Shown here piece after piece: positions 12,834 to 57,438 of a stretch of DNA of 64,000 nucleotides. How positions within the stretch are numbered: the first letter of the stretch is position 1; every line of letters starts with the position of its first letter. Location: positions 37,878 to 101,877 of the forward strand of contig JAFSTA010000164.1 in assembly GCA_017450695.1 (NCBI GenBank). Direction: 5' to 3'. The stretch is from Kiritimatiellia bacterium (GTDB lineage: Bacteria; Verrucomicrobiota; Kiritimatiellia; RFP12; UBA1067). The notes under the pieces are model-generated. The model had not been told where the DNA came from, made no database searches, and saw only the letters and a list, made by a program, of their open reading frames with translations. The position numbers were made by a program, and so were the translations under genes.

Positions 12834-12864
12834 CTAGAGGTTCTAGAAGTTCTAGCCATTCTGG
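12834..12864. repeat. Orphan CTAG 9-bp-phase array
   Basis: CTAG at 12834, 12843, 12852 and CTGG at 12861. Confidence 0.65.
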
Positions 12865-17221: not shown

Positions 17222-18579
17222 ATTGGACTCGCCTCTCGTGTTTCGCCACGTTTTGTTTTGCTCTCTCCGTCCGCGCCGGGCAACCTCAGTTTTCCGGTCC
17301 CGAAAACTGGACGATGATCCAGACGAACGCCATCGCCGCCTGGCAGCAGTCTCAGGCCGCGCTTCCTGACTGCAAGGTCTGGAAGGGGGTTGTCGCCGAT
17401 GGGAAGAAGAAGGAGGTCCGCCTTCTCGCGGAGGCGGTCGGGCACAGCATCGGGATCACCACCGAATTCGCGATTGTCGGCCCGCTCAGCGACCGCGCCT
17501 ACGAGACGGCGACCGTCTCCGTCGCGATGCCGAGCGATGTGGCGCGCGCGATGGAGTCGCTCGGTCTCCCGCGCGGAAAGTGCAACGCCACCTCGCGCTT
17601 TCACTTCTGGCCGGTCGGCGAACATGTCGCGCTCAGCTACCGGCGGATTGAAGCGAAGGACGCGAAAAGTGAACCGATCGCCTCGCTTTTTGAGGACAAA
17701 GAAACTGAGAGCCCCATGCTGGGGAACGATGGTCTCGTCTTCACGGGCGGCAACTGGCTTGCCGGGGGTTGCCAAACCGACACGAACATGCCCTCTTCCA
17801 TCGTCTCGCTCTACAATGCCAGCGATACGATTTTCGATGTGCCGTCCCGCGTCAACCAGACCGATGTGTACGGTCGCCTGACGTTGGCGAAACGTCTGAG
17901 GCGTGGCGAACTGGTGGAGTTCACCTTCCGTCCGTTGCTGGCGAACGGGAAACTCCGTGTCCTGCCGCTCACCGTCTCGGTTCTTCCATCTGCGGAGGGA
18001 CTTGCCGCGCAGGTCACGGGGGATCGAACGGGAACGATCGGCGAAAAACTCTCCTTGCAGGATCTGATCCGCAACCTTCAGCGCGTGGTGAAGGAGGGGA
18101 TGGAGCCGTTTATCACGCTTGACTTCGCGCAGGATCTGACGGTGCAGCAGGCAACCGAAGTTGCCACCGTGTTCCAGATGCTGGACGGGAAGGGCGTGAA
18201 GATGATCGGCAAGGCTGCGAACGGCCTTTACTTCCAGGCCTTCCTGCCCGAATCCAAATGGCGGGAACGGAAGGATCGTGTTCCGCAGCCGTTTGAATTG
18301 CACTTGACGCGGACGGCGGACAGAACTCTGCGCAAGGTGCTGACTTTCATCGAGGAGGATTGGTCGGGAGAATCCCTGGACCCCGAACTGAAACCGCACG
18401 ACTACGAATTCAAGGAGTGGGACGAGCTTCTGCCTCTCGTTGTGAAAAGCGGGGGGAAGGACAACAAGGTCGAACTGCTTTTCGTCTTCGCGCCGAAAGA
18501 CCTGCCTTTGCGCGATCTTCTGCCCGGTGTCATCGCCGTTGATTCCCGCCTCCGTACCGTCTATGTATTTGGCGAGTGA
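17218..18579 (+). CDS. Secreted YdjY-like domain protein
   Basis: Signal peptide; EFAIVG..RAYET..PSDVARAMESLGL and LVFTGG..SIVSLYN resemble PVC YdjY-like proteins (recalled, not searched). Confidence 0.5.
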   Translation: MNWTRLSCFATFCFALSVRAGQPQFSGPENWTMIQTNAIAAWQQSQAALPDCKVWKGVVADGKKKEVRLLAEAVGHSIGITTEFAIVGPLSDRAYETATVSVAMPSDVARAMESLGLPRGKCNATSRFHFWPVGEHVALSYRRIEAKDAKSEPIASLFEDKETESPMLGNDGLVFTGGNWLAGGCQTDTNMPSSIVSLYNASDTIFDVPSRVNQTDVYGRLTLAKRLRRGELVEFTFRPLLANGKLRVLPLTVSVLPSAEGLAAQVTGDRTGTIGEKLSLQDLIRNLQRVVKEGMEPFITLDFAQDLTVQQATEVATVFQMLDGKGVKMIGKAANGLYFQAFLPESKWRERKDRVPQPFELHLTRTADRTLRKVLTFIEEDWSGESLDPELKPHDYEFKEWDELLPLVVKSGGKDNKVELLFVFAPKDLPLRDLLPGVIAVDSRLRTVYVFGE

Positions 18580-18630
18580 GGCGGCGTCATCCGCTTCGGT
18601 AAACGGACGGGGCAAGCCCCCGAACCCCGT

Positions 18631-19005
18631 TCAGCCTCCCGGCGGACGTTCCGTGTTCCACGCGCTCCCTTCCGCAGCGGCCGGCAGGTCGTCGTTTCGC
18701 GTTTGCTCTTCGAAAGCGGTGGACCAGTTGAAGCGGGACACAGCATAGTCGTGCGCTTCCGTTTCCGTTGAATCGACCCACAGCTCGCACTGGCGCATGA
18801 CCGTCTTCAATGCGTCCGCCGCTTCGTCCGGCGGATACTTGTACTTCTTCAAAAGCCGCTTCATGAGCATGCGCATGTTGGCCCTCGCGCTCTCGCGCTT
18901 GTCCCAATCCACCGTCCGGTTGCGGCGTAGCTGGTCGGTCAGCTCCTTCGTGAGCTGGATGAGTGTGTCGTCGGTGTAGAACTTGCGCACCGCCTCGGGC
19001 TTGCT
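18631..19005 (-). pseudogene. hsdR: 3' remnant of type I restriction subunit R (DUF3387-like C-terminus)
   Basis: SKPEAVRKFY..LTKELTDQLRRNRTVDWDKRESARANMRMLMKRLLKKYKYPP..VMRQCELWVD is the HsdR C-terminus. No nuclease or helicase portion upstream. Confidence 0.8.
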
Positions 19006-19017
19006 CCTGCCCAGTCT

Positions 19018-19042
19018 GCAAGGGCGAGGGCGCCCTTGCTAC
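19018..19042 (-). repeat. GTAG-type REP-like hairpin at the hsdS/hsdR junction
   Basis: Minus strand GTAGCAAGGGCG-CCCT-CGCCCTTGC; 9-bp stem 19018-19026/19031-19039. Confidence 0.6.
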
Positions 19043-19066
19043 ATCGACACTCTTCCACTCGCTCAT
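19043..19066 (-). pseudogene. hsdS: 5' remnant of type I specificity subunit S (about 8 codons)
   Basis: AGGGAGG RBS then MSEWKSV, a typical HsdS start in the expected position after hsdM. The sequence then breaks into the hairpin and the hsdR tail in another frame. Confidence 0.55.
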
Positions 19067-19088
19067 TCGTCGCCTCCCTTCTGCGAGG

Positions 19089-19218
19089 CTAGCTAAGCTA
19101 GAAGTTCTAGTTGCTCTAGAAGTGCTAGAAGCTCTAGAATAGCTAGAAAAGCTAGAACCGCTAGAAAAACCAGACCGGCTAGAAGCCCTAGAAAATCTAG
19201 CCACACTAGCCTTCATAG
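19089..19218. repeat. CTAG 9-bp-phase array downstream of the four-helix-bundle gene
   Basis: CTAG at 19089, 098, 107, 116, 125, 134, 143, 152, 161, 179, 188, 197, 206; CCAG at 19170 and ATAG at 19215; variable 5-nt spacers. Confidence 0.9.
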
Positions 19219-19245
19219 CCAGGCCCGCGTCTTTTTCTGCCGTTG

Positions 19246-19911
19246 TCATCGCGCTGGGGCTCCTTTGTCAACAGCTGCAAGGCGCGCCCTCAGCCGTTCG
19301 ACTTCTCGCCGCAGCGCGTCATTTTCGGCCTTGAGAGCGGCGATTTCTTCGTTCTGCGTCTTGCGCCGGCCTAGCCTTGCCGCAGTCATGCGCTCCCGTA
19401 TGCCGCCGTTCTCGGTGAAGTCCTTCGCCTTCGCCGCTAGATGCGTCGCCATCATCTTATCTACCATGTGGCAGAGCGTATTCGCGCAATTCGCAAACTC
19501 CTCGTCGGACCACTTCTCGAAGAACGGCTTATAGTCCTCTTCGCGGTTGTTCGCGCGGCAGAACTTCAGCAATCCATCATAACGGGGGTGAGTCTTGTCC
19601 CAGATCGGCAGATTGCGGCTTTTGAGATAGTCGAGGTAGTCCTCCTTCAGCTCCTTGATGCTCGCGCGGGCCACGTTCAGCAGCTTCAACTCCATCTCGG
19701 TCGATGTGACGCCGTCAGCAAATCCTTCGACGATGTTCTGCTTGCCGCTACGCGCAGCCTGCACCATCTGATCCACCGTGCGGTCTCCGTGCTTGGGTAG
19801 AAACCGCCGGCAAAAGACATACGTCATCTGGTAGAGCACCACTGTCTTCTGGTAGAAGTAGAGGTTCTCCCATTTGGTTTGGGCATTCAAAACTTTCACT
19901 TGCTCAGCCAT
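19246..19911 (-). CDS. Four helix bundle suffix domain protein (TIGR04258-like; Avd/23S-IVP fold)
   Basis: LYFYQK, DRTVDQMVQAARSGKQNIVEG, ELKLLNVARASIKELKEDY, FTENGGIRERMTAARL, C-terminal coiled coil. Confidence 0.85.
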   Translation of the reverse strand: MAEQVKVLNAQTKWENLYFYQKTVVLYQMTYVFCRRFLPKHGDRTVDQMVQAARSGKQNIVEGFADGVTSTEMELKLLNVARASIKELKEDYLDYLKSRNLPIWDKTHPRYDGLLKFCRANNREEDYKPFFEKWSDEEFANCANTLCHMVDKMMATHLAAKAKDFTENGGIRERMTAARLGRRKTQNEEIAALKAENDALRREVERLRARLAAVDKGAPAR

Positions 19912-19926
19912 TCGAAGGGATCCTTT

Positions 19927-19984
19927 CTAGAAGAGCTAGAAGTTCTAGTGTCTCTAGAAGCTCTAGAAAAGCTAGAACAACTAG
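19927..19984. repeat. CTAG 9-bp-phase array upstream of the four-helix-bundle gene
   Basis: CTAG at 19927, 936, 945, 954, 963, 972, 981; flanked by GATCCTTT at 19919-19926 and 19986-19993. Confidence 0.9.
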
Positions 19985-20004
19985 AGATCCTTTTCTCGCC
20001 TGCT

Positions 20005-21528
20005 TTACACCTCATAGCCAATCGCCTTCAAGTTCTTCCTGATCGCCGCCTCTAGCCGCGCCGATTCGCCAAAGAGTTCGCCCAGTTCGCCGGTAAGCCG
20101 CTTCATCTTCGCCTTGAACGGTTCGCCGTCGTCTTCCTCCACTTTGCCACCCGCATAGAGGCCCGGCGTGAGCTTGTATTTCTTCTCGGCGATCTCATTC
20201 GTGGTGGCGACGGCGGCGAATCCCTCCTGCTTGCGGAAGCGCCCTTCGCGGAACTTCGCGAACGTGTCCGCAATCTTCGCGATGTCCTCGTCCGAGAACG
20301 CGCGGTGCGTCCTATCCACCATGGAACCGAGCGAGGTGGCGTTGATGAAAAGCGTCTTGCCGGGCTGGTCCTTCGCGCGGTTAAAGAACCAGATCGTCAC
20401 GGGAATGGTCACCGAGTAGAAGAGCTGCGGCGGCAGAGCGACGATGCCCTCCACGAGATCGTTCTCGATGATCGCCTGGCGGATTTTGTCCTCGCCGCCC
20501 GTCGCGCTCGTGAGGGCGCCGTTCGCAAGCACGAGGCCGATGCGGCCCGACGGCTTCAGGTGCGAAATCATGTGCTGGATCCATGCGTAGTTCGCGTTGC
20601 CGTCCGGCGGCAGACCGTACCGCCAGCGCGGATCGTCCTTCACCTTGTCCGCGCCCCACTTCTTCTGGTTGAACGGCGGATTGGCGAAGATGCGGTCCAT
20701 CTGTTTTCCGGCGTGGAGGTCGTGCATGAAGGTGTCCTCGTGGACAGGACCGAAGTCCGCGCCGATGCCGCGGATGGACATGTTGATCTTCGCCATCTTC
20801 CAGGTGTCGGGGTTCGCCTCCTGTCCGAACACCGACACGTCGCCTCTGTTCCGGCTGTGCTCCTTGATGAACTTCAGCGACTGCGAGAACATGCCGCCCG
20901 ATCCGCAGCATGGGTCGTAGATGCGCATTCCCGAGGCAGGCTGCAGCACCTCCACGAGGACGCGCACGATGCTTTCGGGCGTGTAGTATTCGCCGCCGAG
21001 CTTGCCCTCGTATTCGGCGAAGTGCTGGATGCAGTATTCGTAGGTACGCCCCAGCAGATCGCGGTTCGCCTCCACGTCACCGAGGGGAAGCTCGTTCGTG
21101 AAAAGGTCGATCACGTCGCCGAGCATCGCCTTGTTGATGTCCGTCGAGGCGTAGAACTTCGGCAGCACGCCCTTCAGCGACCGGTTCTCGCGCTCGATGG
21201 CGATCATGGCGTTGTCGATCGTCTGGCCGTTCGACGCGTCGTGCGCGACGGCGGCGATCTTCGCCCAGCGCGCGGACTTCGGCACGAAGAAGATGTTCTC
21301 CTCCATGTACGCGTCGCGGTCCTCTTCCTCGCCGTAGTCCTGCTTCTTCAGTTCCTGATAGCGCTTCTCGAACGCATCCGAGATGTAGCGCAGAAACAGC
21401 AACCCCATCAGCACCTGACGGTACTGCGTGGCGGGCAGCTTGCCGCGCATCAGCTCCGCGGCGTTCCAAAGCTTGCCCTCGAATCCCAGCGTTGCCGTCG
21501 ATTTGGCAGAACTTTTGCTTTTCGCCAT
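20005..21528 (-). CDS. hsdM: Type I R-M system DNA methyltransferase subunit M
   Basis: LWNAAELMRG, GEYYTP, YDPCCGSGGMF (motif I), ANPPFN (motif IV), ANYAWIQH; RBS CAGGAG before ATG 21528. Confidence 0.92.
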   Translation of the reverse strand: MAKSKSSAKSTATLGFEGKLWNAAELMRGKLPATQYRQVLMGLLFLRYISDAFEKRYQELKKQDYGEEEDRDAYMEENIFFVPKSARWAKIAAVAHDASNGQTIDNAMIAIERENRSLKGVLPKFYASTDINKAMLGDVIDLFTNELPLGDVEANRDLLGRTYEYCIQHFAEYEGKLGGEYYTPESIVRVLVEVLQPASGMRIYDPCCGSGGMFSQSLKFIKEHSRNRGDVSVFGQEANPDTWKMAKINMSIRGIGADFGPVHEDTFMHDLHAGKQMDRIFANPPFNQKKWGADKVKDDPRWRYGLPPDGNANYAWIQHMISHLKPSGRIGLVLANGALTSATGGEDKIRQAIIENDLVEGIVALPPQLFYSVTIPVTIWFFNRAKDQPGKTLFINATSLGSMVDRTHRAFSDEDIAKIADTFAKFREGRFRKQEGFAAVATTNEIAEKKYKLTPGLYAGGKVEEDDGEPFKAKMKRLTGELGELFGESARLEAAIRKNLKAIGYEV

Positions 21529-21596
21529 TTTCTTCTCCTGTAAATGTGTATTAGGATAACAAATTCCGGCGCGAAACACAATGCGTGACTCCCGCC

Positions 21597-22547
21597 TCAG
21601 CTGCTGTAGAAACGACGGGAGAGGCGTTTGAAGGCGACGGAGAGGAGCAGGAAGGTGACGGCGGGAAGGATACCGTTCACGCCCGCACCGAGGCAGAGCG
21701 TAGCCTGAAGCAAGAGGAGGTTACGGATGTGGCCGCCGACCGTTTCCGGAACCGGCTGGATGAAGTAGAAGACGCTGCCGAGAAACCAGGCGCGCATCAG
21801 GGAGATCACCGCGAAGAAACAGAGAAGCGGCGTGACGAAAGAGGGCAAGTGGCGGGCCTGGATGGAGAACCAGGCAAAGGCGGGAAGGGTGATGACTAAG
21901 GCAACAAAGGGAAACTGGCGAAAACGCGTGCGTTTCGCGTCAACCTCGGTCTCGTGTTTCGCCACCTGCGAGAAGCCGGTCACATAGAGCGTGACGGCGA
22001 GAAACGCGAGCGAGACGGGAATCAACGGGCTGATGTCGGTAGATTCCAGATGATAAAAACGTGGGTTCGCCGCCAGTATGCCCAACAGGAAGCTGCCACC
22101 CCGGCAGAGTCCCATCGCCAAGACGCCGATAACCGGGACGCGCTTCAGGAAGGCATCATAAAGAAAGATGAGAGTCGCCAGGGCGACCGCCGCGAACAGG
22201 GTAGGGCGGTTGAGCAGGGTGGCGAGGTTCAGACCGAGCAGACCGACCAAGACGGCGAAGATTCTCGCCTGGTGGATGGAGATCGCGCCGGAGGGAATGG
22301 GGCGGTCAGGACGGTCGCGCCGATCCTCCTCCACATCCATCACATCGTTGAGGACGAGCCCGAACAGGTAGAGGCAGAGCGAGCAACCGACGACCAACAA
22401 GAGTGCGTGCAGGGAAAGTTGCTGCGCGTCCGGTGCGGAGGCGAGAAGGAAGCCGGCGACCGGTTCCCCCGGAACGGTCAACAGGTTGGGCACGCGGCAC
22501 AGGGCAAGCCAGGCGCGGCTCACGGACGGGGTGGTTGCGTCAGACAT
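21597..22547 (-). CDS. UbiA family prenyltransferase (EboC-like)
   Basis: LCRVPNLLTVPG, LNDVMDVEEDRRDRPDRPIPSG, LYD, MGLCRG; multi-TM. Confidence 0.85.
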   Translation of the reverse strand: MSDATTPSVSRAWLALCRVPNLLTVPGEPVAGFLLASAPDAQQLSLHALLLVVGCSLCLYLFGLVLNDVMDVEEDRRDRPDRPIPSGAISIHQARIFAVLVGLLGLNLATLLNRPTLFAAVALATLIFLYDAFLKRVPVIGVLAMGLCRGGSFLLGILAANPRFYHLESTDISPLIPVSLAFLAVTLYVTGFSQVAKHETEVDAKRTRFRQFPFVALVITLPAFAWFSIQARHLPSFVTPLLCFFAVISLMRAWFLGSVFYFIQPVPETVGGHIRNLLLLQATLCLGAGVNGILPAVTFLLLSVAFKRLSRRFYSS

Positions 22548-24844: not shown

Positions 24845-24931
24845 AGTGGCTAGAAGCGCTAGAATGGCTAGAAGCGCTAGCCAGCTACCAACCAGCTACA
24901 AGCTATAAGCTGCCAGCCACCCGCTACCAGT
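24841..24931. repeat. Orphan CTAG 9-bp-phase array followed by AGCTA-type short repeats
   Basis: GTAG 24841 (contains the fabH stop), CTAG at 24850, 859, 868, 877, then CCAGCTACAA-like and AGCTATA-like units. Confidence 0.75.
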
Positions 24932-25071
24932 CACCTCATTTCGTGGTGATTTTTCCGCCCGAAAAAATCTGAAAATGCGGCTTTATTTTTCCTGCTGGCT
25001 TTGCTATACTGTTTTCCGTTTTCATTTCCAGCGGATGCTGGTTTTCGGATTGATTAACGAAGGAGATTGGA

Positions 25072-38192: not shown

Positions 38193-38210
38193 GGGGGGCG
38201 CTGCGCGCCA

Positions 38211-38266
38211 GCTGAGAAGCTGAAAAGCTGAGAAGCGGGGAAGTGGAGAGGCTGAGAAGTGGAGAG
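38211..38266. repeat. 8-bp tandem repeat (GCTGAGAA family), 7 units
   Basis: GCTGAGAA GCTGAAAA GCTGAGAA GCGGGGAA GTGGAGAG GCTGAGAA GTGGAGAG. Confidence 0.75.
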
Positions 38267-38327
38267 GCGCATCTCGCGTGTCCGGTTTATCCAGAATATC
38301 CGGCTAACTTATCGGCAAGGGGTTCAG

Positions 38328-57325: not shown

Positions 57326-57438
57326 TTAAATCGCCTTGCGGCTTTAAATCGCCTTACGGCTTTACATCGCCCTACGGCTTTAAATCGCCTTGCGGCTTTA
57401 AATCGCCTTGCGGCTTTAAATCGCCTTGCGGCTTTAAA
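57326..57438. repeat. 18-bp tandem repeat, 6 units
   Basis: (TTAAATCGCCTTGCGGCT)x6, with units 2 and 3 variant, then TTAAA and an inverted related unit to about 57457. Confidence 0.92.

Follow-up and report, generated by a model that had tools for sequence, protein, structure and literature searches.

Why should a small gene for a four-helix-bundle protein lie between two arrays of one short palindrome, each array repeating its motif at a fixed step? The question is raised by a 64,000-nucleotide stretch of DNA from a Kiritimatiellia bacterium (assembly GCA_017450695.1, contig JAFSTA010000164.1, positions 37,878 to 101,877), hereafter the window, in which the tetranucleotide CTAG recurs every 9 bp on either side of such a gene. 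Here we report that the data show a gene-plus-array unit that is heritable and horizontally spread, with lineage-specific array geometry and with cognate arrays dispersed elsewhere. It has the appearance of a partnership, hitherto undescribed, in which a protein family is paired with a family of short repeats.

The helix-bundle gene and its flanking arrays

The two arrays (Table 1) agree with the initial annotation, which had counted 13 perfect and two degenerate CTAG units on one side of the gene and seven on the other: the positions were checked and found correct, the 5-nt spacers vary as claimed, and the 9-bp phase holds save for one step. In the downstream array the perfect units span 19089-19209 (19089, 19098 and onward to 19161, then 19179, 19188, 19197 and 19206), and all steps are of 9 bp except a single one of 18 bp, which contains the in-phase CCAG; the array starts 28 bp from the stop codon of the gene. 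The logo of the array unit is approximately K-CTAG-M, with the spacer letters free. The pattern CTAGN5CTAGN5CTAG matches the window 17 times, whereas 100 dinucleotide-preserving shuffles give a mean of 0.00, and the tetramer itself is under-represented, as had been suggested, both in the window (47 observed, 75 expected) and across the genome (2514 observed, ~18,485 expected from base composition). A CRISPR-like reading of the arrays was set aside, a period of 9 bp and spacers of 5 nt being far too short for it. The degenerate in-phase units at 19170, 19215 and 12861 (CCAG, ATAG and CTGG, respectively) are one-step changes of CTAG, and ATAG, the unit at 19215, is the motif of a sister protein clade.

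The upstream array is exactly bracketed by an 8-bp direct repeat, GATCCTTT (19919-19926 and 19986-19993, + strand), which resembles a target-site duplication; on the gene strand it reads AAAGGATC and includes the ribosome-binding site of the helix-bundle gene. Target-site duplication as a general feature of arrays was rejected: direct repeats of at least 7 nt flank 17 of 168 arrays and 3 of 168 displaced controls, and many of them are internal to the array.

That the gene encodes an Avd-like four-helix bundle was upheld by two NCBIfam matches above cut-off, one to TIGR04258, a suffix domain C-terminal to the bundle (residues 136-184; 55.8 bits, cut-off 40), and one to TIGR02436 (34.8 bits, cut-off 24); the Pfam match to PF05635, at 30.9 bits, lies below its gathering score of 33.8. 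The AlphaFold2 model (pLDDT 87.6) is a helical bundle with a 45-residue C-terminal helix, and the nearest solved structures, 2gsc and 2rld, each of five chains, are the top Foldseek matches (TM 0.70-0.83, target-normalized; E 0.013-0.1). A coiled coil is predicted at residues ~171-215, with coiled-coil peptide matches across residues 179-217. The suffix domain holds the most conserved, arginine-bearing helix of the family, and the residues invariant in all the array types described below cluster in the suffix helix (F165, G169, G170, E173, R179 and R183). Searches of NCBIfam, Pfam and Foldseek gave no HUH/Y1 transposase match for the protein, and the profile libraries and literature searched assign no function to the TIGR04258 fold family.

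Across two phyla, the gene is passed on together with its arrays as one unit. From 132 confirmed relatives 80 loci from gut bacteria were kept, of which L001-L025 come mostly from genomes labeled Kiritimatiellae or Verrucomicrobia (67-87% identity by tblastn) and L026-L080 from Bacteroidales (62-71%), including the isolate Xylanibacter ruminicola KHT3. A CTAG array lies at most 400 bp from the gene in 70 of the 80 loci (on both sides in 23, upstream only in 15, downstream only in 32), and within the same loci array density is 2.04 per kb near the gene (123 in 60.35 kb) as against 0.041 per kb farther away (14 in 339 kb), a difference of ~49-fold. The median distance from the stop codon to the downstream array is 11 bp, and the array frequently overlaps the stop codon itself. 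The neighbors of the unit are diverse and mostly co-oriented. The idea that gene and arrays form a cassette is thus sustained by their recurrence together in unrelated neighborhoods. In L005 (2641-2925 and 3640-3950) and L003 the flanks are very long, with at least 60 CTAG per locus, and consist of a half with G-rich spacers and then a half with C-rich spacers, forming inverted arms despite the palindromic motif.

Alleles without the cassette do exist: empty, array-only and array-plus-gene alleles are all present at one site between alaS and a gyrA-like gene. The order in KHT3 is alaS, 7 CTAG, helix-bundle gene, ~10 CTAG and gyrA/parC-like gene; L122 has two solo arrays (5 and 4 units, 25 bp apart) without the gene; and L175 and L121, where the downstream gene is 94% identical, have neither gene nor arrays. 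Contigs from four DNA runs across 18400-21700 of the window include none that skips the cassette, and they are fragmentary and uninformative on empty alleles; the very high read depth at 19732-19842 stems from a conserved core common to other organisms' copies.

Arrays also lie in frame within genes. Those within alaS of KHT3 and L122, reading for example ASQASSASSASQAS, are absent from the orthologs in L121 and L175; between KHT3 and L122 they are orthologous, and CTAG is kept while the spacers differ, in an alaS that is 83.5% identical overall. The gyrA-like gene of X. ruminicola has a further array in its tail, and at a locus with GATC-type arrays these occur in frame in hsdM and in an upstream open reading frame (ORF; 108-1034), and also at domain junctions of the bundle protein itself. 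The peptides encoded by in-frame arrays are simple linkers rich in Ala/Ser or in Asp-x-Ser/Thr.

Array type follows protein clade

Arrays differ in motif and period according to the clade of the protein whose gene they flank. In a quick tree, from which rows with internal stops or odd lengths (e.g., L023) were left out, the six rows with period-8 arrays form one clade (support 96) and the nine rows without CTAG arrays form another (support 99). The flanks of these nine consist of (GATAGA-N3)n and then (N3-TCTATC)n at period 9, and GATAGA/TCTATC arrays are dispersed in the genomes of that clade (15-43 matches, against 0-2 for controls). An out-of-sample copy, in genome G114, has period-8 CTAG flanks and is 81-83% identical to proteins of the period-8 clade, as against 72-73% to those of period 9.

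Other genomes extend the range of types. Five further genes have flanks of CTAG-8, TCGA-10, TCCGGA-9 (downstream only), TCGA-9 and TCGA-10, where the number is the period; five more loci are flanked by GATC-9 arrays; GTGGAC/GTCCAC and GGGAC/GTCCC arrays add to the types; and in L224 (G134:C191), a 54%-identical relative, a TCCGGA array of period 9 follows the gene (~1592-1631), with none seen upstream. At the C terminus, the relatives with GATC and TCGA arrays carry a C4 zinc ribbon of the topoisomerase type (PF01396, cut-off 32; scores of 36.7 and 45.4 bits), and this terminal ribbon, like the invariant residues of the suffix helix, hints at DNA binding.

The same correspondence is seen inside the genome of the window (5.03 Mb, 58.6% G+C; G000 in the comparisons), where each of the four paralogs (4/4) has its own type of flanking array (Table 1). 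In an exact scan by 4-mer and period, dispersed arrays of at least four units number 52 for CTAG-9, 8 for CTAG-8 and 67 for TCGA-10; GACA-7 and CGAC-7 count 17 and 11 at the same length and may correspond to the arrays of paralog C217.

These patterns bear on the view that the association is one of passive co-location, with the arrays as slippage-prone, microsatellite-like fillers of permissive spacers and the gene as an unrelated small mobile or dispensable ORF found in the same spots. Arrays that are widespread without the gene, the many other periodic array families of this genome and the lack of general target-site duplications would all agree with it. It fits poorly, however, with the 49-fold local enrichment of arrays near the gene, with a motif and period shared by the two flanks of a gene but differing between paralogs in one genome, with a pattern conserved across two phyla, and with the retention of the motif while spacers diverge in orthologous in-gene arrays, and we consider it improbable.

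Genomes with the protein tend to be genomes with the arrays. Co-occurrence was counted in two samples of 151 genomes each, a class sample and a Prevotellaceae-type sample; kin in these counts are not independent, and many of the genomes are drafts. In the class sample, where TIGR04258 is itself widespread (107 of 151 genomes) and a close homolog was taken to be full length with at least 54% identity, CTAGx4 arrays occur in four genomes (G000, G114, G134 and G074), and close homologs occur in three of these (G000, G114 and G134) and in none of the 147 others. Arrays in the Prevotellaceae-type sample are found in 12 of 19 genomes with a close homolog and in 7 of 132 without; put otherwise, there are 19 array genomes and 19 gene genomes, 12 having both, seven only the arrays and seven only the gene. 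TCGA-10 arrays occur in 11 of 151 genomes, among them both of the other genomes with the closest homologs (G114 and G022), as against 8 of the remaining 148.

Dispersed arrays and the surroundings of the locus

The initial annotation had treated the arrays as the bounds of one gene cassette. They do bracket the gene, but not as features exclusive to it: they belong to a repeat family dispersed through the genome, with two further arrays in the window (Table 1). Genome-wide there are 156 matches to CTAGx3, against 3 for the reversed control, and 88 arrays of at least three units at period 8 or 9. A crude gene caller (coding fraction 0.80) places 84 of the 88 between genes, in spacers that are tandem (47), divergent (17) or convergent (12), or at contig ends (8).

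A composite element, in which a conserved CTAG module of four units sits between a G-rich arm and a CCACC arm, both of period 8, is present in ~55 copies (within 6 mismatches of the CTAG module). This element has a conserved, copy-like form; arrays in general show neither a conserved sequence bounded by terminal inverted repeats nor target-site duplication. The solo copies of the composite element lie in the direction of transcription in 9 cases and opposite to it in 12, and occur also in divergent (14) and convergent (5) spacers. A strand-specific role for them was rejected on the lack of orientation bias, which fits a strand-symmetric role at the level of DNA. All arrays are strand-symmetric, having either a palindromic motif or two inverted arms.

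The genome carries an unusual load of phased repeats (TCGA-10, 67 arrays; AACCACC-8, ~65; CTAG-9, 52; AAGC-9, 30; CCGG-9, 21), as well as ~50 arrays of a CAGC/CTGA period-8 family for which no matching bundle-protein paralog was seen. Its longest array, of 25 CTAG units at period 8 with a 16-bp super-period (CCTAGAAT/CCTAGACA), occupies a convergent spacer (G000:C98:2490-2685). The window also holds a AGCTGAGA-type period-8 array of 6-7 units (38210-38269), a periodic stretch at 24880-24935 that looks decayed and is rich in GCTAC/CCAGC, and a tandem repeat at 57326-57438 with an 18-bp unit (6.3 copies, 93% matches, Tandem Repeats Finder score 198).

Some arrays lie inside operons; a 5-unit CTAG array, for example, fills the spacer between YscI/HrpB-like and YscJ/FliF-like genes (L102, G000:C37:35500-39500), which are type III secretion basal-body genes. 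Such positions, together with arrays that abut gene start and stop, would suit an element acting as RNA, in which transcribed arrays fold into rod-like hairpins of motif-motif helices with small internal loops and bracket the cassette mRNA as processing or stability signals, the protein being either unrelated or RNA-binding. The model would liken the arrays to REP hairpins in operons, or to the RNase III stems around the intervening sequences (IVS) of 23S rRNA that carry genes of the same fold; IVS elements are excised by RNase III. Consistent with it, the two flanking arrays fold back as RNA better than dinucleotide shuffles do (z = -3.3 for the downstream array, as an interrupted hairpin, and -2.4 for the other), and non-palindromic motifs always come as two inverted arms (GATAGA/TCTATC, GTGGAC/GTCCAC, GGGAC/GTCCC), which keeps fold-back possible. 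The spacers, however, show no covariation, as folding is no different once the order of the units is shuffled (the mean z is -0.22 for 71 CTAG arrays and +0.36 for 13 inverted-arm arrays), and selected hairpins with paired spacers were rejected on this ground. The composite elements, moreover, lie in either orientation and in divergent and convergent spacers alike, and a search of 18400-20400 against Rfam gave no rRNA match, its sole hit being a chance microRNA match (E 0.83). We regard a role at the RNA level as unlikely.

The immediate surroundings raise a different possibility. The hsdM gene lies directly upstream of the unit, as the initial annotation had it, and scores 156 bits to TIGR00497, under the cut-off; the start of hsdS that had been placed on the other side is not there, an HsdR remnant being the sole recognizable coding segment on that side (Table 1). 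Of the seven Methylase_S matches in the genome none is on the contig of the locus, and the ORF at 18587-19249, which runs through the downstream array, has no family match. Arrays of this kind may break assemblies and can mislead gene callers, and here an array-crossing ORF had been taken for the start of hsdS. With hsdR reduced to a C-terminal remnant and no Methylase_S on the contig, the restriction locus is, judged from its sequence, decayed and without hsdS. An intact set of hsdM, hsdS and hsdR is thus not present, and a relative of hsdM lies upstream in only 7 of the 80 homologous loci. Among the scanned neighbors of the helix-bundle gene there is no reverse transcriptase family match, a scan that did not take in the wider window.

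A link to restriction or methylation would make the motifs methyltransferase or restriction sites, the arrays sinks, sensors or decoys, and the gene a passenger of a defense island. Short palindromes of the kind that type II enzymes recognize account for four of the motifs (CTAG, GATC, TCGA and TCCGGA), and CTAG is ~7-fold depleted genome-wide outside arrays; the copy in the window follows hsdM, and DNA methyltransferases make up 17 of 70 upstream neighbors (12 Eco57I-type methylases and 5 N6_Mtase). Yet non-palindromic motifs exist as well (GATAGA, GTGGAC, GGGAC and TGTCG), the strict phase is left unexplained, and no cognate enzyme was identified. Most neighbors are, besides, housekeeping genes: the other upstream neighbors comprise six alpha-2-macroglobulins and a remainder that includes alaS, gyrA or gyrA-like genes, ligA and rpsL, while a T5orf172 domain is found in 13 of 71 downstream neighbors and many of the others are again housekeeping genes. 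We give this explanation little credence.

Table 1. Positions of the gene, arrays and neighboring genes in the window, and flanking arrays of the paralogs in the same genome
Feature	Position	Strand	Remarks
Helix-bundle gene	19246..19911	-	221 aa; between both arrays; TIGR04258 and TIGR02436 profile matches
Downstream array	19089..19218	.	13 CTAG plus in-phase degenerate CCAG (19170) and ATAG (19215); period 9
Upstream array	19927..19984	.	7 CTAG in exact 9-bp phase; occupies the spacer between hsdM and the gene
hsdM	20005..21579	-	Type I methyltransferase subunit; upstream neighbor, outside the unit; PF02384 347 bits, HsdM_N 89 bits
hsdR remnant	18631..18990	-	Final ~70 residues of the C-terminal domain of HsdR; matches PF11867 at 258-327 of 329, E 3.6e-24
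Solo 3-unit CTAG array	12834..12855	.	Upstream of smc; copy of the composite dispersed element
Solo 4-unit CTAG array	24850..24880	.	Directly after fabH; followed by decayed periodic stretch to ~24935
Paralog C62			Flanking array CTAG-9
Paralog C256			Flanking array CTAG-8
Paralog C103			Flanking array TCGA-10, also within the gene and the next gene
Paralog C217			Flanking array TGTCG/CGACA

A candidate partnership of protein and repeats

The unit invites comparison with the genes of RAYTs (REP-associated tyrosine transposases) and their REP/REPIN repeats. In the published account (PMC3337134), RAYT is a short gene flanked by its repeats, and every gene type goes with a repeat type of its own; a genome has a single copy of each type, several types coexist, the repeats are many, dispersed, mostly intergenic and capable of forming hairpins, and the partnership was inferred from the same kind of evidence as that presented here. 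Our unit is likewise a gene flanked by cognate repeats, with a specific repeat type for each gene type. It differs in its protein, a four-helix bundle with no match to the HUH/Y1 tyrosine transposases, and in its repeats, which are phased motifs of 4-6 nt with free spacers and variable unit number, whereas REPs have a conserved palindrome of 20-40 nt; its arrays, furthermore, also occur in frame within genes.

This last property recalls the Rickettsia palindromic elements (RPEs), repeats that, as outlined in a review (PMC10969869), lie in frame in unrelated, even essential, protein genes and add peptide to their products. The arrays in frame in alaS, the gyrA-like gene and hsdM resemble RPEs and intragenic miniature inverted-repeat transposable elements, and discrete insertion, judged against empty orthologous sites, is seen at the alaS/gyrA-like site and, in frame, in the in-gene arrays of alaS. 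RPEs, in contrast, are conserved families of ~150 bp with a conserved peptide, while the arrays here measure 27-160 bp and conserve only motif and phase.

With Avd and the 23S rRNA IVS proteins the bundle protein shares its fold and family match (PF05635/TIGR02436) and nearest structures of five chains, and the genes behave in the same way as insertions within other transcription units. Unlike Avd, the gene here is adjoined by hsdM and the hsdR remnant and not by a reverse transcriptase; unlike the IVS proteins, it has no rRNA context within 18400-20400; and it differs from both in its extra suffix domain and coiled coil, and in having phased arrays rather than a single long inverted repeat.

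Arrays bound cooperatively by small oligomeric proteins are known from MetJ boxes, omega heptads, ParR iterons and MraZ repeats, and the ring proteins TRAP and HutP read phased triplets in RNA. The arrays described here are like those of the iteron or centromere type in having short motifs at a fixed phase below one helical turn, free letters between them, a variable number of units, and direct and inverted sub-arrays, and in adjoining the gene of their presumed binder. They differ in the fold of that protein, in their hundreds of dispersed sites, coding sequence included, and in having no evident partner ATPase or regulated operon. No description of such phased arrays was found in the literature, searched at the level of listings and abstracts.

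Given unit inheritance, array geometry specific to clades and the dispersal of cognate arrays, recognition of the phased motifs by the protein is the most economical mechanism. The locus would then be one copy of a gene-plus-repeat module, and its protein a putative nucleic-acid-binding oligomer, with DNA rather than RNA as its probable target. Each phased motif would serve as one binding site, the phase being set by the spacing of subunits; the same protein would have the remaining arrays of the genome as its non-autonomous partners, and may help them to arise, spread or persist.

Several observations weigh against such a link. Periodic flanks around TIGR04258 homologs, which the initial annotation had led one to expect, are present in this subfamily and several others and fail to extend to the family as a whole: an array is detectable close to only 5 of 25 unselected TIGR04258 genes, and arrays as a hallmark of the entire family were rejected. 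No specificity determinant was found, the suffix helix of the CTAG clade being identical to that of the ATAG clade. Clade-specific flanks could also arise by co-inheritance alone, because kin share labels. Abundant array families, such as AACCACC-8 and AGCTGAGA-8, are without a matching paralog in this genome. The association is weak for GATC (GATCx4 in 21 of 31 genomes with a homolog of 65% identity or more and in 31 of 120 others, by hand count), and the genomes richest in GATC (G023 with 34, G136 with 34, G090 with 22) have no close homolog. Similarly, G157 has 65 CTAGx3 matches and no homolog at E<=1e-5, and G244 has 78 CTAGx4 matches without a close homolog; conversely, the seven gene-only genomes of the Prevotellaceae-type sample have a close homolog without a 4-unit array. 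Where arrays abound without a homolog, either they persist without the gene or the gene was missed in draft assemblies, and from arrays without the gene it may be argued that the protein is not needed for their short-term persistence.

Weighing both sides, we consider evenly poised the reading that the protein binds its cognate phased motifs, and that the partnership of gene and arrays is RAYT/REPIN-like but lacks a transposase fold, binding and mobilization being the parts that we infer. A broader proposal, which we hold to be possible and rather doubtful, is that the four-helix-bundle proteins of TIGR04258 make up a new class of repeat-partner proteins that is not of the HUH kind. Each lineage would recognize arrays specified only by a motif of 4-6 nt and a phase of 7-10 nt, and would help to create, spread or maintain them. 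Such arrays would colonize spacers and, in frame, essential genes (alaS, gyrA-like and hsdM), and the system would move between phyla in the gut.

The cultured isolate X. ruminicola KHT3, with one copy of the gene and many arrays, can serve as a model. The finding gives the TIGR04258 fold family a concrete candidate partner, the phased arrays of short motifs. If the link is functional, it would be a second, structurally unrelated example of a gene-repeat partnership of the RAYT/REPIN type, and it would explain the odd low-complexity inserts in essential proteins of gut bacteria.

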